Shown here one piece after another: positions 4,603 to 58,320 of a stretch of DNA of 64,000 nucleotides. Origin of the DNA: Escherichia phage outra. The notes under the pieces were generated by a model. The model did no database searches and was not told the DNA's origin. It was given only the letters and a program-made list of their open reading frames with translations. The stretch lies in the sequence record MN850645.1, one strand, 5' to 3'. The position numbers were made by a program, and so were the translations under genes. Each line of letters opens with the position of its first letter. Within the stretch, counting starts at the first letter, position 1.

Positions 4603-4987
4603 CTACACTCTCCTTCAATTGTTCAATAGCATCTGCTGCTTCAATATACTTACCTTTATACATTGCTTTTAAAGCCTTACGAACAAGATCATCGTCTGTA
4701 TATAAATCAATTAGTTGATTAGCTAACTCAATTTTTACAGGATTTTTTAAGTTAGGGTAGGCTTCATACAACATATTGTAATACTTATCACTTAATTCTT
4801 TTTCAATATGAATAACGTGAATCGCTTTGTTTAGGTTGATCACACGATCACCTTTGTTTCGACAAGCATACTTAGCTAACTTAGTGAAACAAGGAGTTGC
4901 ACCAATTAGATATGCAAGTTCCAAAGGTTGCATACGCATACGTTTGTAGTGATCACCATCAATTTGAATATCCAGTGCTGTAGTCAT
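4586..4987 (-). CDS. hypothetical protein (133 aa)
   Basis: ORF track; followed by hairpin terminator at about 5003-5026. Confidence 0.4.
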   Translation of the reverse strand: MTTALDIQIDGDHYKRMRMQPLELAYLIGATPCFTKLAKYACRNKGDRVINLNKAIHVIHIEKELSDKYYNMLYEAYPNLKNPVKIELANQLIDLYTDDDLVRKALKAMYKGKYIEAADAIEQLKESVDGFSR

Positions 4988-5026
4988 AAATCCTCCAAAA
5001 ATAAAGGGGCTTTCGCCCCTTTTTTA

Positions 5027-5989
5027 TTAAATTCCAATAACAGTGTTTACACGTTTCTCTTTGCTACGCAAATTAACACGTCCACGAGACAGGCTATTAC
5101 ATGATGTGCATCTTAGCACTTGGAATGTACTAACCGCTGTTGTGTAAACCTTACCAGGAACAACTTCAAGGTGCTCTTTACCGCAACGAGGACAACGAAG
5201 TTTTTCATCGTCATAGAATGCAGATACGTTAGGGTGTTGTGGAATCCACGCACGAAGTTTGATGTAAAGATCTCTAAGAGAAACAACATCACCATCGTTG
5301 TATGTTTGCATACGGAAGAAGGCGTGTCTGTCTCCTTCACAACATGCTTTCCACAAAGGAAAACCTTCATTATCAAGTTTAAAGTTTTCTGTATCAAAAT
5401 ACAAACACATTTCTTTAAGCGCATTAGAAGGTAGTGCAAACTGCTTCTTAGCAGCCTTGAGTGTATCAATTACAACGTAGTGTGATGGTGGCTCCATACC
5501 GTGAAAAGCAAAACGTTGGTTAATATAAGCCTTATCAAACTTAATACCGTTGTGCGCGATCACAATATCTGCATCGTCAAGCAAGTGCCACAGATCTTGA
5601 CATAATTCCCAATCATCTGTATGATCTATGTCAAACAGAGGATAATTGCTAAGGTTCTTACCTTCTACTTCTCCTGTTTCTAAATCAGCAGATGAATAGG
5701 AAAGCAAGTAACCTCGACGAATAACTTGTTCAGGTGCAATAAAGGCTTTGAAACGTGAGAAGCTATACACAATCTCCGGTGCTGTCTCTACGTCAATAAT
5801 TTTAATTACTGGCCCACCTTTATCTTGCGGAGCACCGCGATGCGGTGAATTTACACGAGCTAAGTAATCATTTACTGTGCTCTTCTTAGTAGAACTTCCC
5901 AACACCTCTTGTGCAATCTTACGCGAAGAATAACCTTGTGCTTTCATAGATACAATCAAGGCTTTCTGTTCGTCTGTTAATTTACTCAA
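5027..5989 (-). CDS. DEDDh-type 3'-5' exonuclease with N-terminal HTH and C-terminal zinc ribbon (putative)
   Basis: Exo I-like IIDVETAPE, Exo II-like IAHNGIKFDKAYI, C-terminal CPRCGKEH...CTSCNS; N-terminal SSRKIAQEV HTH-like segment. Confidence 0.5.
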   Translation of the reverse strand: MSKLTDEQKALIVSMKAQGYSSRKIAQEVLGSSTKKSTVNDYLARVNSPHRGAPQDKGGPVIKIIDVETAPEIVYSFSRFKAFIAPEQVIRRGYLLSYSSADLETGEVEGKNLSNYPLFDIDHTDDWELCQDLWHLLDDADIVIAHNGIKFDKAYINQRFAFHGMEPPSHYVVIDTLKAAKKQFALPSNALKEMCLYFDTENFKLDNEGFPLWKACCEGDRHAFFRMQTYNDGDVVSLRDLYIKLRAWIPQHPNVSAFYDDEKLRCPRCGKEHLEVVPGKVYTTAVSTFQVLRCTSCNSLSRGRVNLRSKEKRVNTVIGI

Positions 5990-7020
5990 TGTTCCTCCTG
6001 CTCTGAAATATATGCTTGTAGCATACTTTCAAAAGTTGTTTCATCATTCGCCCAACGTTTCATATATACCAACTGAAAAATTGTCTCTATCCATTCATCA
6101 GTTGTCATTTCTACTTCTTCACCATCCCAAGAAGTAAATTTAACGCCATCTGGGAACCATTCATAATACTGATCTTTAACTGTCTGAAAAAGTTCAGCCT
6201 GTGTTTTACATTTGGAAATAAGATTAAAGCAAGTAATATCTCCAAACTTAACATCGAAATCTTGGTAAGGTCGAATACTATCTGTCTTATCGCCCATTAG
6301 CATTTGATAAGCTAACCAGTAACTACCCCAGCCCTTAATTTCTTTTTTCTTACCTTTTTCTACGATCCAGATATCACCAATAGATTCATCAATCAGAATA
6401 ATACAAGGATTTTTATAAACACCATCCTCTTTATAAAAGTTAAAGAGTAAACTTGGTGTGTGCAAGCTATCTTTGTCGATAGACGCTACAATATGAGAAA
6501 ACTTACCAGTTTCCTTGTAGGCTTTATACCCTGCATATCCATAAATTTCTAAAGCATCATCTGCCTCAATACCAGTAACAACGTCACCGTTATGTTTTTC
6601 AACTAGATAATCTTTAGTATCTGATAAATGGATTGGTCTTAAATCTGATCGTTCTGATTTATATTCTTTTGGCATTTTGAAAGAATGCCGGAAGGTTTTT
6701 CCTACCCCGATGACACCGCAATACTTTTGAAGTTTTAGGTGATCCATCATCTGGGTTATTTTTGTCTTTGCAGCTTGAAACGTAAAAGAAATATTATCTG
6801 GGACTATTTGAACATCTTTTATTTCAAAATCTTCTCTAGAGAACAACTTTTTACCAGCAGCTTCGCGTTGCGCGTTAAGTGCTCCTAACCATCCTCCAAT
6901 ATTTTTTGAAGATTTACCCCAAAAATCTGTTCTTGTTTCAAACTCTTTTACATTACCGGAAGCCTTATGTACAGCGTGGATTTTTCTTTGTTCTAAAGCT
7001 GAAGACGCTTGGAACGCCAC
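5986..7020 (-). CDS. FEN-like 5'-3' exonuclease / flap endonuclease (putative)
   Basis: VTGIEADDALEIYGY resembles the GxEADD motif of T5 D15 / T4 RNase H; downstream SIDKDSL and MGDKTDSIRPY resemble the second acidic cluster and H3TH region. Confidence 0.55.
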   Translation of the reverse strand: MAFQASSALEQRKIHAVHKASGNVKEFETRTDFWGKSSKNIGGWLGALNAQREAAGKKLFSREDFEIKDVQIVPDNISFTFQAAKTKITQMMDHLKLQKYCGVIGVGKTFRHSFKMPKEYKSERSDLRPIHLSDTKDYLVEKHNGDVVTGIEADDALEIYGYAGYKAYKETGKFSHIVASIDKDSLHTPSLLFNFYKEDGVYKNPCIILIDESIGDIWIVEKGKKKEIKGWGSYWLAYQMLMGDKTDSIRPYQDFDVKFGDITCFNLISKCKTQAELFQTVKDQYYEWFPDGVKFTSWDGEEVEMTTDEWIETIFQLVYMKRWANDETTFESMLQAYISEQEEH

Positions 7021-7112
7021 TTGATCGTAGTCTATTGCAAGAATTGTGTTCTCGTCAACATATTTGTGCAGGTCTTCCGGTTGGATTAAAATGTAACCGC
7101 TAATATTACCTC

Positions 7113-7325
7113 CTATTCATCATCTGAACTCTCTGTTGAGAATGTTCGTGTGTAGGGACACTGACGACTTGCAGAAACCTCTATAACCTTGTCGTACATA
7201 CCGTTAGAGTAAAAACAGTATTTTGTACTTCCAGAAACTTGTTCTCCAGAATTAATTAAAGTTATTTGACCAGCATAAGAATAAGAACTGATTACTAAAA
7301 GTAAACCGACAAGAAGTTTTTTCAT
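7113..7325 (-). CDS. small secreted protein (70 aa) with N-terminal signal peptide
   Basis: MKKLLVGLLLVISSYSYAG hydrophobic leader, then 50-aa mature region with 2 Cys; own RBS. Confidence 0.45.
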   Translation of the reverse strand: MKKLLVGLLLVISSYSYAGQITLINSGEQVSGSTKYCFYSNGMYDKVIEVSASRQCPYTRTFSTESSDDE

Positions 7326-7399
7326 GGTGTGTCTCCTTAAAAGCCCACCTAACTAAGTAGGTAGGCATATTAACACATATTAAATTAGTAAGTCAAGTA

Positions 7400-8284
7400 T
7401 TATTTTTGAATAGTTGACTTGATAAGGTCTTGCATAATACCACGGATTTCATTAAAGCACAGAAGGACAGATGCTTCAAAAGATCCTTCTTCATCATTAA
7501 AGTATTTAGGGAATTTAATACCACTCAACTTAAATTCTTTATCAACAATAAAGTTAACGAATCCGTCATATTCCAGACCAATGGCAACAACGTGCTTACC
7601 ATCTTCCATAAGTTCTACTGCACGAGATTCATAAAGTGACTCTTTACTCCATACAACCACACCTTCCGAATCTTCAAGTTTAATATAATTACCAAGGGTC
7701 AGTCGTTCAGCCTCATGTTCTTCTAAGATGGTATCAAAACCTTTAATAATGGCTTCTTCGTGTACACTAAACGGCAGAACTGGGAAAGTACCCAACACCT
7801 CACGAAGAAATACAGCAATATCTTCACTAATTTTCTTAGAACCATTAAGAACATAGGTAATACTGTTTTCAGTGTCTACAACAACATAGTTATAGAAATC
7901 ATCTGCCTCTGTTTCTGGAAGCAGAGAAAACACGATATCAGCCTCAATTGCTTTTTTACTTTCTTTGTCCAAGAAAAATTCTTTAGTAGGGTTTGCAGCA
8001 ATAAACTCTTGTTCCATCTCTTGGAGTTTTTCATTAAGAATGCGTTTAACTTTTTTCTTGTTAACTTTCTTAACAGATTGCCCTACTTTAATAACCTCTA
8101 AACCAGAGAACACTTTTACATAGGAACCATCATCTTCAAAACGAACAAGACCAATGGTATGTGCTTGTTGACCCTGTGCCACAACAAAATCCAGCGGTTT
8201 GTCTGTTACTGTGTTCAGTGCGGAAATAGACAGACCATCACCAGAAATCAGGGTTACGCAAGATTTGAAATTTTTAGCAAACAT
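7400..8284 (-). CDS. RdgC-like recombination-associated protein (putative)
   Basis: ~295 aa; segments FAKNFKSC, SLLPETEADDF and GTFPVLPFS parallel E. coli RdgC landmarks; start trimmed to ATG at 8284 (RBS GAGGAG). Confidence 0.45.
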   Translation of the reverse strand: MFAKNFKSCVTLISGDGLSISALNTVTDKPLDFVVAQGQQAHTIGLVRFEDDGSYVKVFSGLEVIKVGQSVKKVNKKKVKRILNEKLQEMEQEFIAANPTKEFFLDKESKKAIEADIVFSLLPETEADDFYNYVVVDTENSITYVLNGSKKISEDIAVFLREVLGTFPVLPFSVHEEAIIKGFDTILEEHEAERLTLGNYIKLEDSEGVVVWSKESLYESRAVELMEDGKHVVAIGLEYDGFVNFIVDKEFKLSGIKFPKYFNDEEGSFEASVLLCFNEIRGIMQDLIKSTIQK

Positions 8285-19617: not shown

Positions 19618-19693
19618 GGTTCCATAGCTCACTGACGAGAGCGCACACCTCATAAGTGTCGAGGGCAGGGATTGTAACCCTGGGGAACCACCA
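19618..19693 (+). tRNA. tRNA, anticodon CAT (Met or Ile-lysidine)
   Basis: Hand-folded cloverleaf: acceptor GGTTCCA, D-loop with GG, anticodon loop CTCATAA, encoded CCA; coordinates +/- 2. Confidence 0.6.
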
Positions 19694-19724
19694 TTTAAAA
19701 GGAGGTGCTATGCATCTCCTATAT

Positions 19725-19810
19725 GCAAGTGTGGTGGAATTGGTGATACACATTGTGCTTAAAACGCAACGCTTAAATGATTGAGGGTTCGAATCCCTCC
19801 ACTTGCACCA
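19725..19810 (+). tRNA. tRNA-Leu (TAA), type II
   Basis: Acceptor GCAAGTG/CACTTGC, anticodon loop CTTAAAA, long variable arm, T-arm GAGGGTTCGAATCCCTC, CCA. Confidence 0.65.
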
Positions 19811-19812
19811 AC

Positions 19813-19921
19813 GCCTAGTAGGGTATTTGGTAATTCCGAGGCCATCAAAGCCTGAAAAATATGTTAGACCGCTTTGTCTAACTAAATACGAAATATGGTT
19901 CGATTCCATAACTAGGCTCCC
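19813..19921 (+). ncRNA. atypical ~105-nt tRNA-like element (possible anticodon UCA); may be a pseudo-tRNA
   Basis: Perfect 7-bp acceptor pairing GCCTAGT/ACTAGGC and canonical T-arm TATGGTTCGATTCCATA, but oversized internal region with extra 6-bp hairpin; putative anticodon loop CATCAAA is non-canonical (A at position 33). Confidence 0.3.
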
Positions 19922-19953
19922 AATTTAAATAGTAATTTTTTAATAAAAATATC

Positions 19954-19982
19954 TTGACATTTACTTAGTTTTTTGTTATAGT
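19954..19982 (+). promoter_or_regulatory. sigma70-like promoter (TTGACA-N17-TATAGT)
   Basis: Near-consensus hexamers ~12 nt upstream of next tRNA-like gene. Confidence 0.5.
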
Positions 19983-19993
19983 CATTATGAAAA

Positions 19994-20075
19994 CGGGGTG
20001 TATCTCACCTGACTTCTAATCAGGCGTTAACCGAGTAATTGGAGTATGCAGGTTCGAATCCTGTCACCCCGGCCA
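19994..20075 (+). tRNA. tRNA-like gene, possible Arg (TCT); structure atypical
   Basis: 7-bp acceptor CGGGGTG/CACCCCG, T-arm GCAGGTTCGAATCCTGT, CCA, and clean anticodon arm CCTGA-CTTCTAA-TCAGG; D-arm spacing could not be folded canonically by hand. Confidence 0.35.
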
Positions 20076-20093
20076 AAAAGTTTTAAAAACTAC

Positions 20094-20122
20094 TTGACAA
20101 GCAAGATAGTTTTATGTTAGAT
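20094..20122 (+). promoter_or_regulatory. sigma70-like promoter (TTGACA-N17-TTAGAT)
   Basis: Upstream of tRNA-Ser. Confidence 0.4.
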
Positions 20123-20138
20123 TTAAAGTATGGTAACT

Positions 20139-20228
20139 GGAAGGTAGGGCGCAGCGGTGCGCAACCAGGTTTGAACCCTGGCCCATTGTAGCGATACGGT
20201 GATGGTTCGACTCCATTATCTTCCTCCA
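20139..20228 (+). tRNA. tRNA-Ser (TGA), type II
   Basis: Acceptor GGAAGGT/ATCTTCC, anticodon arm CCAGG-TTTGAAC-CCTGG, long variable arm, T-arm GATGGTTCGACTCCATT, CCA; 3' end anchored to track ORF 20199. Confidence 0.7.
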
Positions 20229-20246
20229 AATTCTCTTAGGAGCTTT

Positions 20247-20399
20247 ATGAATTATAAAACTATTGGACAGGTTGTTACCGGAGTTAAGATTGTAAATAAT
20301 AAAGTTGTTTATGAGTATTCTAATCTTCAACAATCTGAAGATGGTAAGAATATTCGTATGGTAAAAGCAGAACAAAAAGATTCCGGTTGTTTTGAATAA
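20247..20399 (+). CDS. hypothetical small protein (50 aa)
   Basis: Track ORF 20199..20399 starts inside tRNA-Ser; internal ATG at 20247 with RBS TAGGAG is the more plausible start. Confidence 0.3.
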   Translation: MNYKTIGQVVTGVKIVNNKVVYEYSNLQQSEDGKNIRMVKAEQKDSGCFE

Positions 20400-20407
20400 T
20401 TAAGAAC

Positions 20408-20493
20408 GGTAGATTGGTGAAATGGTAGCCACAACAGTTTGCTAAACTGTCGTCGGAAACGGCGTGTAGGTTCAAGTCCTACATCTACCGCCA
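20408..20493 (+). tRNA. tRNA-Ser (GCT), type II
   Basis: Acceptor GGTAGAT/ATCTACC, anticodon arm ACAGT-TTGCTAA-ACTGT, T-arm GTAGGTTCAAGTCCTAC, CCA. Confidence 0.65.
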
Positions 20494-20664
20494 AGTTATC
20501 TTTAATGTAGCTTGTTGCTCTTAGTTGCTTGGTGTAACTTTTTGGAAGGATGGCTGCAACCATCTTACTTTAATAGAGTAAACTTTCGGCAGATGGCCCC
20601 CCACCATCTTACCGATACCTCATAGTTAGTGGTGCGAACACTGGCTATTTTAAAGATAATTTAT

Positions 20665-20740
20665 ACATCGTTAGCTTAGTTGGTAGAGCAAGGGGCTTTT
20701 AACTCCAAGGTCGAAGGTTCGAATCCTTCACGATGTACCA
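20665..20740 (+). tRNA. tRNA-Lys (TTT)
   Basis: Acceptor ACATCGT/ACGATGT, D-loop AGTTGGTAG, anticodon loop CTTTTAA, T-arm GAAGGTTCGAATCCTTC, CCA. Confidence 0.65.
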
Positions 20741-20745
20741 AACAC

Positions 20746-20832
20746 GTAGGTATCGCATAGCGGCAATTGCTGGAGACTGTAAATCTCCTGCCCTTCGGGG
20801 CTTCGTTGGTTCGAGTCCAACTACCTGCACCA
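20746..20832 (+). tRNA. tRNA-Tyr (GTA), type II
   Basis: Anticodon arm GGAGA-CTGTAAA-TCTCC, long variable arm, T-arm GTTGGTTCGAGTCCAAC, CCA. Confidence 0.65.
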
Positions 20833-20839
20833 AATTAAA

Positions 20840-20924
20840 GATGGATTGGCCTAGTGGTTGGGCGACGGACTGTTAATCCGTGAACGAAAGTTCTAGCAAG
20901 GTTCAAATCCTTGATCCATCGCCA
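20840..20924 (+). tRNA. tRNA with anticodon GTT (Asn-like) and an unusually long variable arm
   Basis: Acceptor GATGGAT/ATCCATC, anticodon arm ACGGA-CTGTTAA-TCCGT, variable hairpin GAACGAAAGTTC, T-arm CAAGGTTCAAATCCTTG, CCA. Confidence 0.5.
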
Positions 20925-21003
20925 AATAGTGCTTGTAGAGTTAATAGAAACCTCTAGAATTTTCTAGAATTGTAGGTATCAAATCCTACCAAGCAAATAT
21001 TTT

Positions 21004-21078
21004 GCTCCTATCGTATAACGGCTATTACGGTTGCCTTGTAAGCAACTTATCAGGGTTCGAGTCCTTGTGGGAGCACCA
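21004..21078 (+). tRNA. tRNA-Thr (TGT)
   Basis: Acceptor GCTCCTA/TGGGAGC, anticodon arm GTTGC-CTTGTAA-GCAAC, T-arm CAGGGTTCGAGTCCTTG, CCA. Confidence 0.65.
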
Positions 21079-21095
21079 ATTTTAACTCTAAAGGA

Positions 21096-21425
21096 GTGTA
21101 TGTGACAGAAAAAGAGTTAGAGAAATATTTTAATATCAATGTTTTCGATGGTTTTGATGATATCGAAGATGTTGAAAGATATTATGAAGTAGAGTTAGAT
21201 AAGGATAACATTGTAATTCTTTCTGCCACTTATGATTGTGCATATTATGAAGGTGAATCTCACGTTTATTTTTATGATATGAAAACATCTTTGTTTTATG
21301 AAGTACACGCATATCATTGTTCTTGTTATGGCTTAGAAGGTCAGTGGGAACCTGAAGAAATAGGTGATTTGGACTTTACTATTGCATATCTAAACAGACG
21401 TGGTGCATCTAATATTTTAAAATAA
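21096..21425 (+). CDS. hypothetical protein (109 aa)
   Basis: ORF track; GTG start adjacent to AAGGAG; HCSCYG Cys/His segment. Confidence 0.45.
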   Translation: MYVTEKELEKYFNINVFDGFDDIEDVERYYEVELDKDNIVILSATYDCAYYEGESHVYFYDMKTSLFYEVHAYHCSCYGLEGQWEPEEIGDLDFTIAYLNRRGASNILK

Positions 21426-21439
21426 ATATCAAAAGCCTC

Positions 21440-21469
21440 TTGACAAAGAGGCTAATAATATGTTAGAGT
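21440..21469 (+). promoter_or_regulatory. sigma70-like promoter inside an 8-bp inverted repeat (AGCCTCTTGACAAAGAGGCT)
   Basis: TTGACA lies in the loop of a perfect palindrome; -10-like TAGAGT about 18 nt downstream; upstream of tRNA-Gly. Confidence 0.45.
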
Positions 21470-21480
21470 AATATTGTTAA

Positions 21481-21555
21481 GCGGGTATAGTGTTAATGGT
21501 AGCATATGAGGTTTCCACCCTCCAGGTGCAGGTTCAAGTCCTGTTACTCGCTCCA
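21481..21555 (+). tRNA. tRNA-Gly (TCC)
   Basis: Acceptor GCGGGTA/TACTCGC, anticodon loop TTTCCAC, T-arm GCAGGTTCAAGTCCTGT, CCA. Confidence 0.6.
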
Positions 21556-21655
21556 AGATTATTTAAATGGAATCGCTAGAGAAAATTTCTCTTTTCGCTC
21601 ATGGTTTTCTCCTTCAAACTCTAGCGGTTCTTTTTAAGTGATTTTTTAGTTTTAT

Positions 21656-21730
21656 TGGAGATTAGCCTAGTGGGAAGGCAACGGCCTTTGAAGTCGTGAT
21701 GACTAGGTTCGATTCCTAGATCTCCAGCCA
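21656..21730 (+). tRNA. tRNA-Gln (TTG)
   Basis: Acceptor TGGAGAT/ATCTCCA, anticodon loop CTTTGAA, T-arm CTAGGTTCGATTCCTAG, CCA. Confidence 0.65.
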
Positions 21731-21737
21731 ATATTTA

Positions 21738-21813
21738 CAGTGCGTAGCGCAGTTGGTAGCGTGGGAGCTTTGGATGCTTCGGGTCGCAGGTTCGAGTCCT
21801 GCCGCACTGACCA
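21738..21813 (+). tRNA. tRNA-Pro (TGG)
   Basis: Acceptor CAGTGCG/CGCACTG, D-loop AGTTGGTA, anticodon loop TTTGGAT, T-arm GCAGGTTCGAGTCCTGC, CCA. Confidence 0.65.
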
Positions 21814-21818
21814 AATTT

Positions 21819-21893
21819 GCAGAGATAGCTGAGACGGATTAGTGCTACCCTGAAAAGGTAGAAAGGATGGATCGTTACCATCTCTCTGCACCA
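21819..21893 (+). tRNA. tRNA-Phe (GAA), non-canonical T-loop
   Basis: Acceptor GCAGAGA/TCTCTGC, anticodon arm CTACC-CTGAAAA-GGTAG, T-arm GATGG-ATCGTTA-CCATC, CCA. Confidence 0.55.
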
Positions 21894-21970
21894 AATAACA
21901 CCATCCAAGGAGTAGACTTGGTTAACTGTCAATAGCACATTGAGGCTTCTTACAGTGGTGTATTTATTAT

Positions 21971-22055
21971 GGCTAAGTGGTGGAATGGTATACACGATAC
22001 GCTTAGAACGTATTGCCCCAAGGGATTGTGAGTTCGAGTCTCACCTTAGCTACCA
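21971..22055 (+). tRNA. tRNA-Leu (TAG), type II
   Basis: Anticodon arm ATACG-CTTAGAA-CGTAT, long variable arm, T-arm GTGAGTTCGAGTCTCAC, CCA. Confidence 0.65.
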
Positions 22056-22143
22056 TATCTAAGAGATATCATAGGGTTTGCAACGGATATCTACCGTCCT
22101 GTTAAGGATACCACGCCAAGACGGGTTATAAAGGGTTAGCCAT

Positions 22144-22219
22144 TGATAGTGTGAAGCTGGCGTTTCGAGTGCTTTCATAAGGCATTGCGAGAAGAGTTCG
22201 ATTCTCTTACTATCAACCA
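22144..22219 (+). tRNA. tRNA, anticodon CAT (Met/Ile2 class)
   Basis: Acceptor TGATAGT/ACTATCA, anticodon loop TTCATAA, T-arm AAGAGTTCGATTCTCTT, CCA. Confidence 0.55.
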
Positions 22220-22234
22220 AATTACTACAGATTG

Positions 22235-22313
22235 CGCGGGATAGAGGAGTCTGGTCGTCCTCGCCAGTTTCATATGCTGGAGATCATCGGTTCGAATCCG
22301 ATTCCCGCCTCCA
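22235..22313 (+). tRNA. tRNA, anticodon CAT; unpaired 1:72 position (initiator-like feature)
   Basis: 5' CGCGGGA vs 3' TCCCGCC leaves a C:C mismatch at 1:72; anticodon arm CCAGT-TTCATAT-GCTGG; T-arm ATCGGTTCGAATCCGAT, CCA. Confidence 0.5.
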
Positions 22314-22371
22314 TTAAATACCTCCCTTCTGGTGTAATGATTAAATTGCATTGACACTTCAAGGAACTCAT

Positions 22372-22454
22372 AGCCGGGTAGATTTAAAAGAGTATGGTAC
22401 TCAATATGGCTCCAAACCATAGATCAAGGGGTTCGATTCCTCACCTTGCTGCCA
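22372..22454 (+). tRNA. tRNA-Trp (CCA) candidate; boundaries uncertain
   Basis: Clean anticodon arm TATGG-CTCCAAA-CCATA and T-loop GGGGTTCGATTCC with CCA end, but acceptor pairing is imperfect by hand. Confidence 0.35.
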
Positions 22455-22459
22455 ATTAT

Positions 22460-22535
22460 TGTGGTATCGTACAGATGGTTAGTACACTCGACCGATAATC
22501 GAGAAACAACGGTTCGATTCCGTTTACCACGACCA
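22460..22535 (+). tRNA. tRNA-Ile (GAT)
   Basis: Acceptor TGTGGTA/TACCACG, anticodon arm CTCGA-CCGATAA-TCGAG, T-arm AACGGTTCGATTCCGTT, CCA. Confidence 0.65.
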
Positions 22536-45584: not shown

Positions 45585-47660
45585 ATGAAACAGGCTATTT
45601 TTACTGTAACTCGAAATACGAGAGTAAATGCCAGTTCATTCAGCTATAAGACCGTCGATGGAACGGCGGTCGCTGGTAGAGATTATGTAGCTAAACAGGG
45701 AACAGTAACGTTCCCTTCTGATGCAGATTCTGCTACTGTAGTGGTTGATGTATATGAACGTCCGGCAAACTCTTTAGATCTTTATTTTACTCTTGAGATT
45801 ACTAGCATAAGTCAAAATAACATGATGATCAACGAAGAAATTCGTTGTGTTATTACGACTGATCAATCGAATACAACCCCGCTAACTTGGCCTGTTGTGA
45901 AGTCTAGAATGTTTGATCCTAAGTTTTGGACAATAGATTCTCAAGCAACAGAAAGTTGTTCTATTATCTCTAATGGTGATTCTTTCACAGCAAGAATGGT
46001 TAATAGGACAGTGGCTGGTCTTGCTGGGATTATTTGGTCAACTTACGATAAATATGATCACAAAGGATTAGGCTACCAAGAACATTCTGACTTAAGTAAA
46101 GAGAAACTTTGGTTTAAAATGGAACTTAGTCAAGGTGTTCCTGGATTAAAAGAAGAAAAATTAATGCCATCCTTAACAGTGACACTGAAGGATGAAACAG
46201 TTCATTATGTATCTCTAAACTTTTATGCAGAAGAAGTTTCAGAGGACGGTAAAACAGCAATAATCAAATTAGATTTCTCAAATTTAAAATCTGGGCCAGA
46301 AAATGATATTGTTGTTGACACTACACAGATAGATAACATGTTCTTCTCCTTGATTTCCGCAAGGTATCAAGAAATTGAAGATGTTATACCAGTAGACAAT
46401 ATAGATCTTTCCTTTAAGTTTACCATACTAGAGCCTGATACTGGTTACAGTATGATGAATATGGGTAATTTAAATGTTCCGGCGCACACCATAAGAATGT
46501 GTACATCTTATGATGATATGTATAACCTAACACCAGAGCGAGTTATTTCTAACACCTATAGATTAGGTTATAGAGATATGATTAACCATTATAATGGTAT
46601 GTCACACTATTATCAATTTAGTTGGGATGCCGGATCTAATAAATGGGCTTTGAATAGAACAGAATATTTAAACCCAGCAACAGAAGCCTGGTTTGATAAT
46701 TTCCACGCTAATGCAAAAGCTATGGGCTACACAGTAATGAACTCCTTAAGTTTTGAACTTATGAGTACAGTGTGTCCTGTAGAATGGGTACAACATACTT
46801 GGAATGATGATCTGGCTGCTACAGGTTATGAGCCACCAAGTTATGTTTTATCTCCTTCAATTGATGAAGGGATGAATTATTTACAAGGTGTAATAAATAA
46901 GATAGCTTCTATATCCGCTGCCAATGATCTTCCTGTTATTATTCAGGTTGGTGAACCGTGGTGGTGGTATAACACAGCTACCAATCTACCGTGTATCTAT
47001 GATTATACAACCAAAGTTGCATTTAATAATGAAACTGGGTTATATGCACAAGATGTTGGTACAGTTAAGAATTATAAAACTGGTACACCATATGATGAAT
47101 ATTATGCATTCCTATCTAAAACATTAGGACTGCGTGTTGCTAAATTTGCAACAGATACTAAATTAGCCTATCCTGGAGCTAAAGTTACATTATTACCATT
47201 TGTGCCATCCATTTTAGGTAACGGTATGATGGAGTTTGTTAACTTCCCTAAAGATCATTATATCCCAGAAAACTTTGACTTTTATTGTTCAGAATGTTAT
47301 GACTGGTTGTTGGAAGGTCAGATGGAAAGATCTTTCGACGCTATCAAAATACCTAATGAGCAACTAGGTTTTAGTTATGATAAGATACATTATCTTGCAG
47401 GGTTTGTTCCAGATGCAACTCTAGCACCATTATATGGCTTTGATCCTGAATCAGACTACAGAACATATTTGTGGAAAATGATTATAGGTAATATTGTATT
47501 GAATGACCAGAAGTTTGTTGGTTTGTATCAATACATATGGGCTTATCCACAAATTATGGCAGATTCATTAACTGTTCTTAATTCAAAATCCCAAGTTTTT
47601 TATATGGGTAACGTACCTCTGAATGTCTTTTTACAAGATACAGTATATGTTTCTTCTTAA
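45585..47660 (+). CDS. large tail/baseplate protein (691 aa)
   Basis: ORF track; aromatic-rich GEPWWWYN segment; function unknown. Confidence 0.4.
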   Translation: MKQAIFTVTRNTRVNASSFSYKTVDGTAVAGRDYVAKQGTVTFPSDADSATVVVDVYERPANSLDLYFTLEITSISQNNMMINEEIRCVITTDQSNTTPLTWPVVKSRMFDPKFWTIDSQATESCSIISNGDSFTARMVNRTVAGLAGIIWSTYDKYDHKGLGYQEHSDLSKEKLWFKMELSQGVPGLKEEKLMPSLTVTLKDETVHYVSLNFYAEEVSEDGKTAIIKLDFSNLKSGPENDIVVDTTQIDNMFFSLISARYQEIEDVIPVDNIDLSFKFTILEPDTGYSMMNMGNLNVPAHTIRMCTSYDDMYNLTPERVISNTYRLGYRDMINHYNGMSHYYQFSWDAGSNKWALNRTEYLNPATEAWFDNFHANAKAMGYTVMNSLSFELMSTVCPVEWVQHTWNDDLAATGYEPPSYVLSPSIDEGMNYLQGVINKIASISAANDLPVIIQVGEPWWWYNTATNLPCIYDYTTKVAFNNETGLYAQDVGTVKNYKTGTPYDEYYAFLSKTLGLRVAKFATDTKLAYPGAKVTLLPFVPSILGNGMMEFVNFPKDHYIPENFDFYCSECYDWLLEGQMERSFDAIKIPNEQLGFSYDKIHYLAGFVPDATLAPLYGFDPESDYRTYLWKMIIGNIVLNDQKFVGLYQYIWAYPQIMADSLTVLNSKSQVFYMGNVPLNVFLQDTVYVSS

Positions 47661-47671
47661 GGATCTCTAGT

Positions 47672-47917
47672 ATGAGAAAATTTTTAATAGGTATGTTTTG
47701 TACATATCCTGATAATAAAGTCAGTTCTACTAAAGTTTGGAATGCTATTGGTATGATTGTTATGTCCAGTATGTTTATTTATTTGGGAATTGATAAAGAA
47801 ATTCCTGAATGGATGGGCTGGGCTTTTGTTTTTATGATCACACCATCCAGACTAATGAAGAATTTAATAGATTTACGTTGGGGCAGATCACCTGCCCCTG
47901 ATAAGGAGGATAACTAA
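47672..47917 (+). CDS. small membrane protein (81 aa, two hydrophobic segments)
   Basis: IGMIVMSSMFIYLGI and WMGWAFVFMITP hydrophobic stretches; embedded in baseplate cluster. Confidence 0.4.
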   Translation: MRKFLIGMFCTYPDNKVSSTKVWNAIGMIVMSSMFIYLGIDKEIPEWMGWAFVFMITPSRLMKNLIDLRWGRSPAPDKEDN

Positions 47918-51603: not shown

Positions 51604-51945
51604 ATGGAGCTAACAGAAGTATGGGATATCGCTAAAGAGGCGATTATCCCTCTTATTGGCGTAATCTGGGTGGTCTTCAAACAGAAGATAGATGATATGG
51701 CAAGTGATTTGGATAAAATGGAAGACAAATACCGCGAACTAGAAAAGAAGTTGGTGTTTGTTGAATCCACTTATGCTACCAAAGCAGAACTTGCTCAAAT
51801 GCTTAACCAGATCAACTCTACATTAATGGCAAATAATACTGCCTTAGAACAGAAGATTGAAAAAATAATGGATTTAAAAAATGCTCCTGTTCAATTAATG
51901 CTAGAGGAGATTACAAAGCGCACACAAAGTAAGGACAAAAATTAA
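51604..51945 (+). CDS. small coiled-coil protein (113 aa)
   Basis: N-terminal hydrophobic segment plus heptad-rich region. Confidence 0.35.
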   Translation: MELTEVWDIAKEAIIPLIGVIWVVFKQKIDDMASDLDKMEDKYRELEKKLVFVESTYATKAELAQMLNQINSTLMANNTALEQKIEKIMDLKNAPVQLMLEEITKRTQSKDKN

Positions 51946-54359
51946 TGGCGAATTTTCCAACATATCCTGCTACGACACTAGAACAAGGTGTTGATCTGGT
52001 TATATTCTCGTCTAACCAGATGCATGATGTTATTAATGGAGATGCTACAGCAACTGTAGAAACCGAAACAGGTTTAATACCTACACTGCGTAAAGCACTT
52101 GTTGATAACTTCTTCTTTAAGAGTCCTGTTGCTTGGTCAGCAGGATCAACTGAAACTGTATTTAACCAGTTACGTTATTTTGAAAACGGTATCTTGAGTG
52201 GGTACTATTATGCCCCATCTGCCACTACTGCTAACCCTGTACCTATGCAGGGCACACCTGTAGGGGATAGTAACTGGACTCTGTACGCTCTTAAAACTGA
52301 ACAGTTAGCTTCAGATGTGTATCCTTGGTATTTTAAAGGTGCTACAGGATATGAAACAGAAATCAGTCCTCCTTATATCTTTGATAATGCTATTGTCACC
52401 ATTAACGGTGTAATTCAGATTCAAGGTGAAGCATTTACTATCAAAGATAGTAAAATTATTCTGGCAGAACCATTAGGTTTAGATCCGTCTACTGGTCTAC
52501 CTAACAAATTGTTTGCTTTTATTGGTAAAACAACAGCCTCTACTTCTTACGTAGAGAAAAACCTTTTGTCATCCACCACTGGTGCAGCAATGGTTGGTCT
52601 TCCATCTGGAGGCAACCTGTTACAAGCTCAATACTTTGTAACGCCTGAGCAGTTTGGTGCAATTGGTGATGGAGTTACCGATGATACTCAAGCAATTTTA
52701 AAAACCATTACTTTCGCTAACACGAATAACATTCAAGTACGTGCAGATAAGAATTATAGATTCACAAGCTCAATTGCTATGTCTGGTATTCGTTGGTATG
52801 GTGGTACATTCACTGGTAACGGTGGAACAATGATTTCTACTGTGTCCTGTTGGATGGAAAACGTTCGCTTTGAAAAATGTTATGTTAAGATGTTAGGTGG
52901 TGATTGCCGATTCTATCGTAATATCTTCTCCAACGCAACATCTACAGCAGCATTCTTAATGCAAGCAATGACAAGTGAAGGTACGTTGGACTTCAGTTAC
53001 AACGAAATGTATGGTTGTAAATATGCGATCCTGCAACAAGGTACTGGAGAAGTAATGACCTACGGGCGTTACTCTAACAACTATATTCACGATATTAAAG
53101 GTGATGCTATTGAACTTAACGTAGTTCAAAAACACTACACTGAAGGTTTGATTATCGAGAATAACCACATTGCTAACGTAGATGCTTCTGGACAAGGGGC
53201 AAACTGGGGTATTGGTATTGGTGTAGCAGGTAGTGGCCCATATGGTGTTGATGTTCCTGACTCACAATATGTACGTAATTTCAGTATCGTTGGGAATAGG
53301 GTTTACAATTGCCGTCAATGTCTACACGTTGAAATGGGTAAAAACTTCACAATACGTGATAACGAAGTTTATCCTAACACAGCAGTTTCAACAGGTACAG
53401 GTTTAACTACTTGTGGTGTTGCATTATACGGATGCCAAGATTTTGAAGTTGATGGTTTAACTGGTTATCTGCTTAATGATCCGTCTGTTTCAACACGCAT
53501 GGTCTTTATTGACTGGGGTGTTAACAGTGGAAGATATGCGGGGCCACCAATTAACTTTACAATTAAGAATTTGGATATTCCAGAATCTTCAATTGAGATT
53601 GCAACGGCTGGATCAGATGCCTGGGAAAACTCTACAATTGTTAGTAACATCAATTGTAATGTTTTTAAATGGCGTGGGCTACCATCTAGCTCTACCTTTA
53701 ATAATATTCGTTGCCGTAGTATTGACTTTATTGGTCAACACGGAAGCGGAGAAGGAAGTGGTGGCGGTTTCTATACTCGCAGCCAATTCACGTATATGAA
53801 GTGGGTAGGATGTACAGCACTTAGCGGAGATGAAACAACAGTTTCTTTTGCTAAAATCTACACTGATCGTTGCGATCAGGTTGGAAATAACTTTGGTGTT
53901 CCAACTGCTGTTGATGGTACAGGTCATCGTGGGCCAGTTTTAACTACTATTTCTGAACAATATTTTACAGCTTATGATGAATTCCCAGGTGGGCGTGAAT
54001 TCCCTACTGGAACAGTTATTCATTGTGCAAGCGGTAAAAAACATGTTGTTACAGTAGGTGGTGCTTTCTTTAGTGCCAACGAGAAAATAAAAGCAACTGT
54101 TACAGGTCAAACCTATCTACAGTCTAATGCTTTAAACTGGGCTAGTAATGGCTACGCTAAAGCAGCAGGTACTAAGATTGTTATTCCAGGTGCAGGTGCA
54201 AATGGCGGCGATCTTGTGACAACTATAGCACGTGCTACATACGTGACAAATAGTTTGTACACAATAGATATTGCAGATCCAATTGTAACACCTACAGCAG
54301 AGAATACACAAATTAAAGCTCTGAATCCTGTTACTTTTGTTACTGTCAATAATGCTTAA
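51945..54359 (+). CDS. tailspike with pectate-lyase-like right-handed beta-helix (putative depolymerase)
   Basis: PEQFGAIGDGVTDDTQAIL signature of pectate-lyase-superfamily tailspikes; 804 aa. Confidence 0.6.
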   Translation: MANFPTYPATTLEQGVDLVIFSSNQMHDVINGDATATVETETGLIPTLRKALVDNFFFKSPVAWSAGSTETVFNQLRYFENGILSGYYYAPSATTANPVPMQGTPVGDSNWTLYALKTEQLASDVYPWYFKGATGYETEISPPYIFDNAIVTINGVIQIQGEAFTIKDSKIILAEPLGLDPSTGLPNKLFAFIGKTTASTSYVEKNLLSSTTGAAMVGLPSGGNLLQAQYFVTPEQFGAIGDGVTDDTQAILKTITFANTNNIQVRADKNYRFTSSIAMSGIRWYGGTFTGNGGTMISTVSCWMENVRFEKCYVKMLGGDCRFYRNIFSNATSTAAFLMQAMTSEGTLDFSYNEMYGCKYAILQQGTGEVMTYGRYSNNYIHDIKGDAIELNVVQKHYTEGLIIENNHIANVDASGQGANWGIGIGVAGSGPYGVDVPDSQYVRNFSIVGNRVYNCRQCLHVEMGKNFTIRDNEVYPNTAVSTGTGLTTCGVALYGCQDFEVDGLTGYLLNDPSVSTRMVFIDWGVNSGRYAGPPINFTIKNLDIPESSIEIATAGSDAWENSTIVSNINCNVFKWRGLPSSSTFNNIRCRSIDFIGQHGSGEGSGGGFYTRSQFTYMKWVGCTALSGDETTVSFAKIYTDRCDQVGNNFGVPTAVDGTGHRGPVLTTISEQYFTAYDEFPGGREFPTGTVIHCASGKKHVVTVGGAFFSANEKIKATVTGQTYLQSNALNWASNGYAKAAGTKIVIPGAGANGGDLVTTIARATYVTNSLYTIDIADPIVTPTAENTQIKALNPVTFVTVNNA

Positions 54360-54363
54360 TTAA

Positions 54364-54386
54364 AAAGGGGCGAAAGCCCCTTTATA
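54364..54386 (+). terminator. hairpin terminator
   Basis: AGGGGC-GAAA-GCCCCT hairpin after tailspike gene. Confidence 0.45.
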
Positions 54387-54400
54387 AAAGGAGTAGTAAA

Positions 54401-56362
54401 GTGATTTTAACACGTCCAAATAGTGCCATTGCAGACATGGTAGAGTCTCGCTATAGAAAGCGTAGAAGTTTTGCAAGTGGTTTTACCTTAAGAGATGCTC
54501 GTGAAGCATTGCTCTTTGAAACTGACGGTAACTACTATCAGTGGAAAGGTTCTCTACCTAAAGTTGTACCTGCTAACTCTACTCCTACATCTACTGGAGG
54601 TATTTCAGATACAGCTTGGAAAAATGTGGGTAATGCAGATGACATTGCTCAAATAGAATCAGAATTAGATGCTATTGAAGCTGAAATTGAAGATCTTAGA
54701 GAATCCATTCCAGAAGCTGGTAAATCAGCTTACCAGATTGCCGTAGACAATGGTTTCCAAGGTACTGAGACAGAGTGGTTGGCTTCTTTAAAAGGTGATC
54801 CAGGTGCTCCATTAAAGCTGCTAGGGACGCTATCTAATACCAACCAATTACCTACAACTGGAAACAATGCAGGAGATGCATGGATTGTAGGCGAGAATAT
54901 GTATGCTTGGGATGGTACTGCTTGGAGAAAAGTAAACTCACAGGGGCCAGAAGGTAAATCAGCTTATCAAGTTTGGCTTGCAGCAGGAAACCAAGGTACA
55001 GAACTAGATTATCTTGCTTCAATTAAAGGTGATAAAGGGGAGCCTGGCCCAGAGGGGCCACAAGGTGTACCAGGTAACAATGCTAATGGTTTTGATTACC
55101 AAGGTGCAGCTAATTCCGTTTCAGATCTTCCTTCTGCATCTCCTGGAAACACATCTCAAGCATGGAGTATTGGTACATATCTATACGTGTCAAACGGTGT
55201 AGAATGGATCAATATGGGTGCTATAGTGGGGCCAAAAGGAGATAAAGGCGACAAAGGAGATAAGGGTAACACTGGTGATTCAGCTTATCAAGTCTGGTTA
55301 AACGCTGGTAACGTTGGTACTATTGACGAATATATTGCCTCTCTGAAAGGAGAAAAAGGTGATAAGGGAGACAAGGGTGATCAAGGTGAGCAGGGTATAC
55401 AAGGCTTGACGGGGCCAACTGGTGCAGGGTTGACCATTATTGATATTCTGACTGACACTTCTGAACTACCACAAACTGGAGAAGATGGTGATGGTTATCT
55501 GATCAATAATGAACTTTGGGTTTGGTTGCAAGGAGCCACACAGTGGACAAATGTTGGTCGTTTAGCTGGTACTCCAATCACTGCAAAAGGACACGTTGCG
55601 TCTGCAAGTGCACTTCCTCCTACATCCAATTACGGTGATGCTTATCTAACGGAAGACACAGGTCATCTTTACATTTACACCTATGATGAACAAACTCAAA
55701 CTGCTGAATATGTAGATATGGGCAGTTTGAAAGGTGATAAGGGTGAGAAAGGTGACGCTGGTACTAACGGTACAGACGGTGCAACTTGGATTGTTAAAAC
55801 AACAGATCCAATCTCTAGTGATGGTAAACAAGGGGATTATGCCTTTAATATCTCCACTGGCGAGGTGTTCTTAAAAACATCTGCAACTGTCTGGACTTCT
55901 CAAGGTACACTACCTAGCATTACAGATGCACCTAGTGACGGTAAGATCTATGCTCGTAAAGATGGAGCATGGGAAGAACTCACCAGTTCTGTAGATGGTC
56001 AAGATATAGTTCCAACAAAAGTAACAACTAATTTTATAGAGGTTACAGCATATACCAACAACTCTGTTACAGGTGACTGGACACCTCCAGGAACACATAA
56101 CATGAATGTGTTGAATCTTACTGGTAACTCTACTATAAAAGCATGGCCTGGTGTCGAAGATAGCACAAAACCTAAACCATTCTCTGCAATAGTTTATCTT
56201 ATCCAAGATGCCACTGGAGGTCGTACTGTTACTTTAGATCCATCTTATAAAGTAATTGGTTCTAGTGATATTAATACAGATCCTAACGGAGTAACAATAC
56301 TACAACTAACATATTGTGGTGTTGGTGATTACGTGGATGCTATTGTTGCTAAACGCACATAA
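54401..56362 (+). CDS. tail fibre protein with collagen-like G-x-x repeats
   Basis: GPKGDKGDKGDKGNTGD, GEKGDKGDKGDQGEQGIQGLTGPTG, GDKGEKGDAGTNGTDG; 653 aa. Confidence 0.55.
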   Translation: MILTRPNSAIADMVESRYRKRRSFASGFTLRDAREALLFETDGNYYQWKGSLPKVVPANSTPTSTGGISDTAWKNVGNADDIAQIESELDAIEAEIEDLRESIPEAGKSAYQIAVDNGFQGTETEWLASLKGDPGAPLKLLGTLSNTNQLPTTGNNAGDAWIVGENMYAWDGTAWRKVNSQGPEGKSAYQVWLAAGNQGTELDYLASIKGDKGEPGPEGPQGVPGNNANGFDYQGAANSVSDLPSASPGNTSQAWSIGTYLYVSNGVEWINMGAIVGPKGDKGDKGDKGNTGDSAYQVWLNAGNVGTIDEYIASLKGEKGDKGDKGDQGEQGIQGLTGPTGAGLTIIDILTDTSELPQTGEDGDGYLINNELWVWLQGATQWTNVGRLAGTPITAKGHVASASALPPTSNYGDAYLTEDTGHLYIYTYDEQTQTAEYVDMGSLKGDKGEKGDAGTNGTDGATWIVKTTDPISSDGKQGDYAFNISTGEVFLKTSATVWTSQGTLPSITDAPSDGKIYARKDGAWEELTSSVDGQDIVPTKVTTNFIEVTAYTNNSVTGDWTPPGTHNMNVLNLTGNSTIKAWPGVEDSTKPKPFSAIVYLIQDATGGRTVTLDPSYKVIGSSDINTDPNGVTILQLTYCGVGDYVDAIVAKRT

Positions 56363-56365
56363 TCA

Positions 56366-56390
56366 AAGCCCCTTCGGGGGCTTATTGTTT
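56366..56390 (+). terminator. hairpin terminator
   Basis: AAGCCCC-TTCG-GGGGCTT hairpin. Confidence 0.45.
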
Positions 56391-56401
56391 AAGGAGATTA
56401 A

Positions 56402-58288
56402 ATGTATCCTATTCCTTTATTTATGTCAACAACATCAGCTTCAGTAGTAACAGCTACATCTATAACCACTTCCTCTATTGGCATTGCAATAGTTGGTAGT
56501 AAAAAACAACTGACATATACAGTTACACCCGAAGATGGTGCGTTATTTGATATAGCTTTTTCATCTTCAGATAATACCAAAATGGTTATAGATAATAATG
56601 GTATGATGGAGTTTGTTGCTGAAGGTGGTTTTGATGCAATAATGACAGCTAAAAATAATTTAGGTGCTGTCTTAACTGATCAATCTGGTGGTTATGCTTC
56701 AGAATTAAGTGTGTACACTGAAAGTCTATCGGCTATGGATGTAGGCACTACTCAACAGTTGGTTGCTACAATCAGTCCAGAAGGTGCTAAAGACCTTCCA
56801 GATATGGTAATTACATACACCACAACAGATCCAGAAGTAGCTACTGTAAGCCCTACAGGATTAATAACTGCTCTTAAAGATGGCAATTGCCGTATAGGTT
56901 GTACTGCAACGTATCAAGGAACAGTTGTGGCCTCTGATAGTTCTTATTTAGGTGTTAATGCTATTCCTGTTATTTCTAATGTAACAGCCGTGGCAAACAG
57001 TTATGGAGACGTTCGTGTTGCTTGGGATGTAACTGATCCACTAGACGGTGATACTTATACTGTAGAAGTATTAGATTTAAGTGATAATAGTGTTCAGTGG
57101 ACTACAACAACCACGAATACTTACGCTTACTTTGATATCTCTGACTCTATTCCTCTTTATGGGTTTGCTCCAACATACCTTAAAATTAGCGTTAAGAGCA
57201 CCAAAGCAGCAGCCGTTATCTTTAATAACTCAATAGCTACAGATGATTCGTTCATTAAAGAAGTTATTGTCTTTGCTGGACAAGATAACGTAAATGCACA
57301 CTTTACAGAATTATCTGGTGCAAATAAAGCAGTAATGAGTAGCACAACAACCCGTAATGCATATGCTACGCAACGTGGTTTAGCAAATGCTGAAGTTCTT
57401 CCGTTAAATACAGCTTCTGGATCATCAGCAGCAGATAAATATGCTGACGATAAAGCTGGAACAGGTACACCAGACAACTACTGGTATGATCTGGATAACA
57501 CAGCAGATGGGCCATGCTTAACTAACTTTATCACTAAAGTCACACCTTATGCAAGTAAGGTTAAAGCAATTATTTGGGGACAAGGTGAAAATGATGCTGT
57601 ATCAGCATCTTCGACTGTTGCAGGTAGGTACAGTAACACTACACGTTACCATGATGCTACGATAGCTATCTTTGATAAGATGCGTACAATAGTTCCTGCT
57701 TCTCAAGCAAAAATTGTTTGGCAGATCCTAGGACGTTCTTATTTATATGGTGTAGAAGTTAATGGTGTGGATTGGCAGAAGTACAGAAATGTACAAAGAA
57801 CCATCTCTACAGCACGTGATGATGTTATCATTGGTTCTTGGGTAGATGGTGCTGAACGTTACAGTGGTTATGTTTATGAAGAAGGTATTGATGGTCGTAT
57901 CCATTATATTTCTTCTGTATATCAAACAGCAGCTACAAAACTTGCTAAATCAGCAGCAGACGGTACAGATTTAACATCAACACCACCTGTTTGGGTTGAT
58001 ATGTCTGTTCCAACAGGAGGAGCCGCTGTAAGACAAGCTAACCAAGATGCAATTATTTCTTGGGAACCAGCAGGATATACCAAACATTACTTCCGAAATG
58101 TAAACGTCCTCACAGCAGCAATTCTTACAGAACAAACTCTTGATACTAACACTTACACATTTACTTATGCAGATCAGGTTGAACAATACGGGTTTGCAGC
58201 AGGTACAGCAGTGTTTGATGTTGCACACTATGATGCTGATAATGACGTGTTATCACCTCTTGTCAGATTTACAGTCAATGTTACATAA
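56402..58288 (+). CDS. tail protein with Ig-like N-terminal region and SGNH/SASA-type esterase-like C-terminal domain (putative glycan deacetylase)
   Basis: VIVFAGQDNVNAHF (GQSN-like) and IIWGQGENDA (WxQGExD-like) resemble sialate O-acetylesterase/SGNH motifs; N-terminal Thr/Ser-rich beta region. Confidence 0.5.
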   Translation: MYPIPLFMSTTSASVVTATSITTSSIGIAIVGSKKQLTYTVTPEDGALFDIAFSSSDNTKMVIDNNGMMEFVAEGGFDAIMTAKNNLGAVLTDQSGGYASELSVYTESLSAMDVGTTQQLVATISPEGAKDLPDMVITYTTTDPEVATVSPTGLITALKDGNCRIGCTATYQGTVVASDSSYLGVNAIPVISNVTAVANSYGDVRVAWDVTDPLDGDTYTVEVLDLSDNSVQWTTTTTNTYAYFDISDSIPLYGFAPTYLKISVKSTKAAAVIFNNSIATDDSFIKEVIVFAGQDNVNAHFTELSGANKAVMSSTTTRNAYATQRGLANAEVLPLNTASGSSAADKYADDKAGTGTPDNYWYDLDNTADGPCLTNFITKVTPYASKVKAIIWGQGENDAVSASSTVAGRYSNTTRYHDATIAIFDKMRTIVPASQAKIVWQILGRSYLYGVEVNGVDWQKYRNVQRTISTARDDVIIGSWVDGAERYSGYVYEEGIDGRIHYISSVYQTAATKLAKSAADGTDLTSTPPVWVDMSVPTGGAAVRQANQDAIISWEPAGYTKHYFRNVNVLTAAILTEQTLDTNTYTFTYADQVEQYGFAAGTAVFDVAHYDADNDVLSPLVRFTVNVT

Positions 58289-58292
58289 ACAA

Positions 58293-58320
58293 AAAGGAGC
58301 CAATAGGCTCCTTTTCTTTT
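58293..58320. terminator. bidirectional rho-independent terminator between convergent genes
   Basis: AGGAGCC-AATA-GGCTCCT hairpin flanked by A-run and T-run. Confidence 0.6.

Follow-up and report, generated by a model that had tools for sequence, protein, structure and literature searches.

A probable colanidase tailspike of Escherichia phage outra, orthologous to phi92 gp150

A long open reading frame (ORF) in the tail region of a coliphage carries a motif known from polysaccharide-degrading tailspikes, and the locus raises the questions of which polysaccharide the protein attacks, by what chemistry, and whether it does so from the virion. The gene lies in a 64,000-nucleotide stretch of Escherichia phage outra (MN850645.1), called the window here. 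It occupies 51945..54359 on the + strand, starts with ATG and encodes 804 amino acids before the stop codon, exactly the boundaries given in the first-pass annotation, a model-made note that had seen only the letters and their ORFs. That annotation proposed a tailspike with a pectate-lyase-type beta-helix and a candidate depolymerase. The results identify the gene, at a probability of about 0.93, as encoding the colanidase tailspike of a phi92-like myophage, a modular baseplate spike that cleaves colanic acid by hydrolysis.

The protein was compared with gp150 of phage phi92 and differs from it at 4 of 804 residues (V282I, N528S, S555A and D711A; 99.5% identity). The two genes differ at 20 of 2415 nucleotides, and 16 of these differences are synonymous. 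A phmmer search of the PDB sequences matched residues 180-804 to 6e0v_A/6e0w, 'Bacteriophage Phi92 gp150', with 1429 bits. The synonymous changes and the match to 6e0v/6e0w show that 51945..54359 did not arise as an ORF by chance. Of 50,697 phage records searched with tblastn, 46 hold copies with at least 99% identity; the closest copies (99.9% identical) are in phages Eryne, muut, inny and alia, and many of the copies at or above 99% bear the label 'colanidase tailspike', 'colanic acid-degrading protein' or 'colanic acid degradation'. The protein matched PHROG 6117, 'colanic acid degradation' (E 1e-269). Positions 40000-64000 of the window have 99.2% DNA identity to Escherichia phage vB_EcoM_ESCO8 of the genus Justusliebigvirus, and the genes around the tailspike gene are arranged as in phi92, where gp141 to gp153 form the baseplate and tail-fibre cluster. 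The ESCO8 identity, the shared gene order and the four amino acid differences identify the source as a phi92-like myophage (Justusliebigvirus) and 51945..54359 as the gp150 orthologue. The two proteins have equal length and genomic position, the same domain order and conserved residues, and 800 of 804 residues in common; they differ in the four substitutions, and the endosialidase gene gp143 that neighbours the locus in phi92 is absent here. PDB 6E0V is apo phi92 gp150, and 6E0W is its complex with one colanic-acid repeat unit. Through phi92 gp150 the sequence, structure and activity of the tailspike are already on record.

Structure prediction followed by Foldseek was the check set beforehand for the beta-helix. 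The AlphaFold2 monomer model, built with 37 homologues, had a mean predicted local distance difference test score (pLDDT) of 83.7, mostly above 90 for residues 230-650, and its short strands follow each other in the regular manner of a beta-helix. In a Foldseek search of the PDB the top match was 6e0v (E 7.6e-84; 'Apo crystal structure of the colanidase tailspike protein gp150 of Phage Phi92'), ahead of mannuronan epimerases, the Sf6, HK620 and Det7 tailspikes and GH87 glucanases. The tailspike is a member of the right-handed parallel beta-helix (pectin-lyase-like) fold superfamily, and the proposed beta-helix was thus borne out.

The motif PEQFGAIGDGVTDDTQAIL, from which the fold had been recognised, is present and marks the first rung of the helix. 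Residues 230-660 were searched against 1.84 billion representative proteins, which gave just 191 matches at E <=1e-3; of these, 74 reached <=1e-10 and 31 reached <=1e-30. The weak matches were mostly limited to the first 50-100 query residues, dozens of them to the motif region. The motif is therefore a widespread N-terminal beta-helix cap, and the remaining catalytic domain belongs to a small family (WcaM, PF27800). A PDB profile search aligned residues 228-298 to iota-carrageenase, mannuronan C5-epimerases and beta-1,3-glucanase. PF12708 (Pect-lyase_RHGA_epim, formerly Pectate_lyase_3) matched residues 236-294 only, which is the motif region, with 15.3 bits against a gathering threshold of 27 (E 0.018); PF12218 was also sub-threshold, and membership in a Pfam pectate-lyase family was rejected. 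The motif is degenerate in homologues with 43-49% identity (P0017, P0019, P0025 and P0026), so it is not a catalytic signature and does not predict function alone. The first-pass view of the motif as a depolymerase hallmark needs correction here, since the same cap is found on hydrolases, epimerases and lyases alike.

The modular organization of the tailspike was analyzed by BLASTP against 78 homologues, which fall into three types. The first has only residues 1 to ~115/125 in common with the tailspike, placing the anchor breakpoints at about residues 115-125. The second shares residues 1 to ~218/228 and continues into unrelated C-terminal enzymatic domains, assigned to PF27114, PF12708, PF13229, PF13472 and PF05048 in precomputed Pfam data. 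The third shares only residues ~180/230-801, which stand behind other N-termini (PF18668 Tail_spike_N, PF09008 P22-type head-binding and PF03906 T7 tail-fibre). Receptor-binding proteins classically swap N- and C-terminal cassettes in this way. Modular exchange of this kind is expected for a virion-attached receptor-binding protein, as homologues carry the N-module or the C-module alone.

The N-terminal module points to the site of attachment. Residues 12-126 align with residues 15-130 of chain g in the phiTE baseplate structure 9CUY (9cuy_g; E 9e-18). The phiTE baseplate paper (9CUY) gives a long tail fibre modelled for residues 14-171, with its N-terminus described as binding the outer wedge and sheath initiator; judged by the residue ranges, 9cuy_g is probably this long tail fibre. 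The small beta domain that follows (residues ~123-180, pLDDT 77-86) matched the tail fiber families phrog_2710 and phrog_11393 and, weakly, 23sh_r 'tail fiber gp9' (E 7e-4), 8es4_G Gp44 and 7y22_e 'tail adaptor protein'. The neck was modelled as short helices with a pLDDT of 54-67; the 6e0v chain begins at residue 180, and homologue alignments break at residues 199-230. The only significant match in the local Pfam scan of the tailspike was PF20745 TSP_Ig-like at the C-terminus (residues 704-792; E 2e-14, 54 bits versus a cutoff of 27.9).

Three observations weigh against a baseplate spike. Residues 1-120 have low confidence in the monomer model, PHROGs places the gp150 family in the category 'moron, auxiliary metabolic gene and host takeover' and not under 'tail', and a 2026 phi92 electron cryomicroscopy (cryo-EM) study fitted gp150 to none of the fibre densities, its AlphaFold3 models disagreeing with that of fibre II. 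The PHROG category and the density misfit would suit a soluble 'moron' enzyme that is freed at lysis and strips colanic acid from neighbouring cells. This explanation is unlikely, given that the N-terminal 120 residues are homologous to the N-terminus of a baseplate-bound fibre resolved in phiTE and that this anchor module also precedes numerous other kinds of enzymatic head. The gene also lies inside the baseplate and tail-fibre operon, and its start codon shares bases with the TAA stop of the gp149-like 113-residue ORF upstream (TAATG at 51943-51947), which suggests that its translation is coupled to that of its neighbour. The PDB entry title likewise calls gp150 a tailspike. The phiTE-type anchor could bear on where gp150 is seated on the phi92 baseplate, and its homology to what is probably a long tail fibre could guide the placement of gp150 in the phi92 fibre density.

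The substrate and chemistry were taken from the phi92 enzyme. PMC13450770, citing Xu 2025, reports that this enzyme hydrolyses the glucose-fucose (Glc-Fuc) linkage of the colanic-acid backbone. The colanic-acid-degrading enzyme (CAE) of phage NST1 (GenBank HM214492) is a colanic-acid hydrolase by experiment (PMC9143390). A further homologue with 57% identity, P0006, is annotated as colanic acid-degrading; P0006 and P0007, 713-residue coliphage 'colanic acid-degrading proteins', resemble the tailspike in the catalytic and C-terminal modules (56-57% identity over residues 189-801) and differ in having their own, shorter N-terminal anchor module. The 99.5% identity to a reported colanic-acid hydrolase supports the first-pass proposal of a depolymerase, and on this orthology the tailspike is predicted to be a glycoside hydrolase with a pectin-lyase-like fold.

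Conservation was used to locate a candidate active site. D387 and E463 are present in 24/24 homologues of the catalytic module and E390 in 23/24. In a wider set of 34 sequences with 19-54% identity, including E. coli K-12 WcaM, D387, N392, H461 and E463 are invariant, and E390, W421 and Q458 are conserved in at least 90%. The tailspike has all four putative active-site residues of the colanidase family (D387, E390, H461 and E463). Two carboxylates plus helpers are the usual glycoside-hydrolase arrangement, and D387 and E463 are therefore proposed as the catalytic pair, with E390 and H461 as candidate helpers.

A true polysaccharide lyase would instead act by beta-elimination at the glucuronic acid of colanic acid. 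This mechanism was rejected as very improbable. For the phi92 enzyme the reported reaction is hydrolysis at a Glc-Fuc bond of the backbone, and a non-uronic linkage is incapable of beta-elimination by general carbohydrate chemistry; the glucuronic acid is in the side chain, judging by the transferase names. The family conserves Asp, Glu and His residues, as is typical of glycoside hydrolases, and the PF12708 score is under threshold. The pectate and pectin lyases themselves (Pel9A 1RU4, 1IDJ; PF12708-type) share no significant family membership with the tailspike and use beta-elimination, in contrast to the hydrolysis reported for the phi92 enzyme. The term 'pectate-lyase-type' thus stands for the fold and fails for the chemistry. 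The tailspike endoglycosidases of P22, Sf6, HK620 and Det7 differ from the tailspike, with ~10-17% identity, O-antigen substrates, podo/sipho-type anchors and other catalytic residues. A shift of specificity to another polysaccharide, or a spike left with binding only, has next to no likelihood and was rejected: the four substitutions relative to phi92 gp150 exist, but all lie outside the conserved columns, the nucleotide changes are silent in 16 of 20 cases, and variants at most one residue away are found in many phages isolated on K-12.

Colanic acid is the M-antigen exopolysaccharide of Enterobacteriaceae and is made under Rcs-inducing stress. The colanidase tailspike would meet it as follows. 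The anchor and the adaptor-like beta domain would fix the spike to the baseplate periphery, followed by the short neck, the beta-helix and the immunoglobulin-like (Ig-like) domain, presumably as a trimer. The beta-helix would bind colanic acid, hydrolyse the backbone and release repeat-unit oligosaccharides. Cutting the slime layer would bring the virion to the cell surface, where other fibres may bind the definitive receptors; candidates are the gp142 homologue (N4-gp65-like, NGR glycan), the gp147 homologue and the gp151 homologue. The gp142 homologue (45585..47660) has the N4-gp65-type non-contractile tail sheath domains PF23844 and PF23845. Large-scale receptor screens map the Justusliebigvirus receptor on K-12 to NGR glycan through the gp142 homologue. 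For this reason colanic acid is better regarded as a barrier formed on induction and a layer for first attachment than as the sole receptor. Reviews of phi92 state that the colanidase degrades colanic acid, so that secondary tailspikes can degrade and/or bind the cell envelope. The first-pass annotation had named a surface polysaccharide as the receptor; degradation of colanic acid, on the reported activity of the orthologue, agrees with this, but the polymer is an inducible barrier, the spike is one of several receptor-binding proteins, and the mapped receptor is NGR glycan.

The catalytic core has a counterpart in the host. The precomputed Pfam family of the catalytic module is PF27800, named WcaM. 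The NCBIfam WcaM models TIGR04004 and NF007517 scored 100.6 and 98.1 bits over residues 358-552 only, with E 7.7e-29 for TIGR04004, far from their equivalog cutoff of about 795-808 bits, so the core is a WcaM homologue and not an orthologue. BLASTP against E. coli K-12 WcaM (b2043) gave 32% identity over 200 residues (E 1e-26), and the blocks DxxGDAIExNV, NWGIGIGxAGS and CRQxxHVExGK are all kept between the two proteins. E. coli K-12 wcaM (locus L005, 4503-5897) is the last gene of the colanic-acid cluster and the counterpart of window 53016-53612. Of the candidate active-site residues, D387, H461 and E463 are invariant in the shared core and E390 is nearly so. WcaM has 464 residues, starts MPFKKLSRRTFLT and carries the twin-arginine translocation (Tat) signal SRRTFL, whereas the tailspike starts MANFPTYPATTLEQ, has no RR motif and showed no Tat signal; WcaM in turn has neither a phage anchor nor a C-terminal Ig-like domain. 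A list of Salmonella Tat substrates includes WcaM.

In the literature searched, no functional study gave a biochemical role for WcaM. A delta-wcaM strain serves as the 'colanic-acid-deficient' mutant in a Salmonella study, and this use neither supports nor excludes a glycanase role. Pantoea WceF is described as a Tat-exported, tailspike-like beta-helix glycanase from the stewartan cluster, and wceF mutations raised stewartan size, suggesting a role in chain length. The P. stewartii protein (PDB 6TGF) has ~14% identity to the tailspike and is bacterial and Tat-exported, with stewartan as its substrate. The candidate active-site residues are kept between active phage enzymes and Tat-exported WcaM, which makes WcaM a possible colanidase. 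We tentatively suggest, at slightly less than an even chance, that WcaM is a periplasmic colanic-acid glycanase that trims the polymer or controls its chain length, and that phages captured and weaponised a host enzyme of shared origin. By analogy, its role may resemble that of Pantoea WceF, BcsZ, PslG or AlgL. No paper in the literature searched proposes WcaM as a colanic-acid glycanase; the homology itself is recorded in Pfam PF27800.

Two chromosomal homologues of the catalytic module were also observed. P0017, from Enterobacter sp. BIGb0383 (locus L003, 8001-9785), has 594 residues and is 49% identical to residues 228-801 of the tailspike. It lacks a phage anchor, its FGAxGDG motif is degenerate, and by eye no signal peptide was obvious. 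Its surroundings contain no prophage genes, no phage-type Pfam domains in the neighbours and no wca cluster, and its neighbours include a YfaZ-family gene and dcm/vsr. P0017 is possibly an enzyme of colanidase type that is bacterial or has been domesticated. P0011, an 809-residue homologue in the E. coli chromosome GCA_053902965.1 (locus L004, 8001-10430), is directly upstream of a holin/holin/GH19 endolysin/spanin-like lysis cassette. Because of this position, temperate phages also appear to carry WcaM-type spikes.

The features of the tailspike gene are collected in Table 1. RNA folding of the hairpin behind the gene gave -14.7 kcal/mol (z -3.7 versus shuffles). The terminator scan did not flag it, since its T-run is short, and ahead of the gp151 homologue it is possibly a weak terminator or an RNA-stabilising element. 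The promoter scan showed no enrichment, with 33 matches against 28.7 expected from shuffles. The upstream 113-residue ORF (51604-51945, +) is the phi92 gp149 orthologue and is called 'lipoprotein' in RefSeq and PHROGs. Its sequence contains zero cysteines, and it therefore cannot be a lipobox lipoprotein; by eye it seems to have a hydrophobic helix at the N-terminus and then a charged, coiled-coil-like stretch.

Table 1. Features of the probable colanidase tailspike gene and its flanks, in window coordinates.
Feature	Position	Strand	Remark
AGGA ribosome-binding site	51932..51935	+	9 nucleotides upstream of the tailspike ATG; identical site annotated in phi92
Probable colanidase tailspike gene	51945..54359	+	phi92 gp150 orthologue
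N-terminal virion-anchor module, residues 1-~122	51945..52310	+	precomputed Pfam PF26208 on homologues
Small beta domain, residues ~123-180	52311..52484	+	resembles part of podophage tail-fibre/adaptor proteins
Neck/linker, residues ~181-233	52485..52643	+	start of crystallised fragment; second module breakpoint at about residues 200-230
Motif PEQFGAIGDGVTDDTQAIL, residues 234-252	52644..52700	+	N-terminal cap and first rung of beta-helix
Right-handed parallel beta-helix catalytic domain, residues ~234-655	52644..53909	+	
Catalytic core common to host WcaM, residues 358-556	53016..53612	+	D387, E390, W421-G426, H461, E463
C-terminal tailspike Ig-like domain, residues 704-792	54054..54320	+	Pfam PF20745 TSP_Ig-like
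GC-rich hairpin AAAGGGGC-GAAA-GCCCCUUU	54364..54383	+	20 nucleotides; starts 5 nucleotides past the tailspike stop

Several neighbouring loci differ from those of related phages. The slot of the endosialidase gene gp143, which takes up about 2.9 kb in phi92 and holds another, 2.2-kb tail spike in ESCO8, is empty at 47641-47676, between the gp142 homologue and the gp144 homologue (47672..47917). The alignment there skips from phi92 locus position 4789 to 7733, and the gp142 homologue ends in another, shorter C-terminus (691 versus 719 residues). The matched span indicates that muut, ZYD and Eryne apparently have the same spike-less arrangement. Because the endosialidase slot is empty, the phage should lack K1/K92 capsule activity. 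Downstream of the tailspike gene, the gp151 homologue (54401-56362, +) has an N-terminal Tail_spike_N domain, PF18668 (E 3.6e-21), and G-X-Y repeats like those of collagen; it matches fibritin-C weakly and is followed by a hairpin at 56366-56383. The next gene, a 628-residue ORF (56402-58288, +), is a single intact 'tail component' gene. Its product contains Big_2 Ig-like domains (E 1.9e-13), and its residues 374-437 resemble PF03629, the SASA family of carbohydrate acetylesterases, only weakly and below threshold (15 bits); a bidirectional hairpin follows at 58292-58315, at the switch to the minus strand. Phi92 has no counterpart of window 56992-57209 and is annotated in this region with two genes, gp152 and gp153, and the phi92 reference may carry a disrupted version of the gene. 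In the DNA polymerase region (minus strand, ~61571 and ~62539), ESCO8 has about 450 and phi92 about 730 nucleotides more than the window. The extra nucleotides lie inside or beside the DNA polymerase gene, labelled 'part I' in ESCO8, which suggests a mobile insertion in ESCO8 and phi92 that is absent from the window. A cluster of 16 tRNA genes at 19618-22535 (+) includes three tRNA-Met(CAT), two Leu and two Ser.

The tailspike of phage outra adds little that is new, being a further copy of a characterised depolymerase that is annotated in dozens of phage genomes and whose phi92 type is already in use for making colanic-acid oligosaccharides. A beta-helix depolymerase was correctly recognised from its N-terminal cap motif in sequence alone, and the lesson of the comparison is that this motif tells the fold and not the chemistry or the substrate. 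The host homologue could be of modest wider interest: if the proposed link to WcaM is true, it would give a function to an orphan gene of the textbook E. coli colanic-acid cluster.

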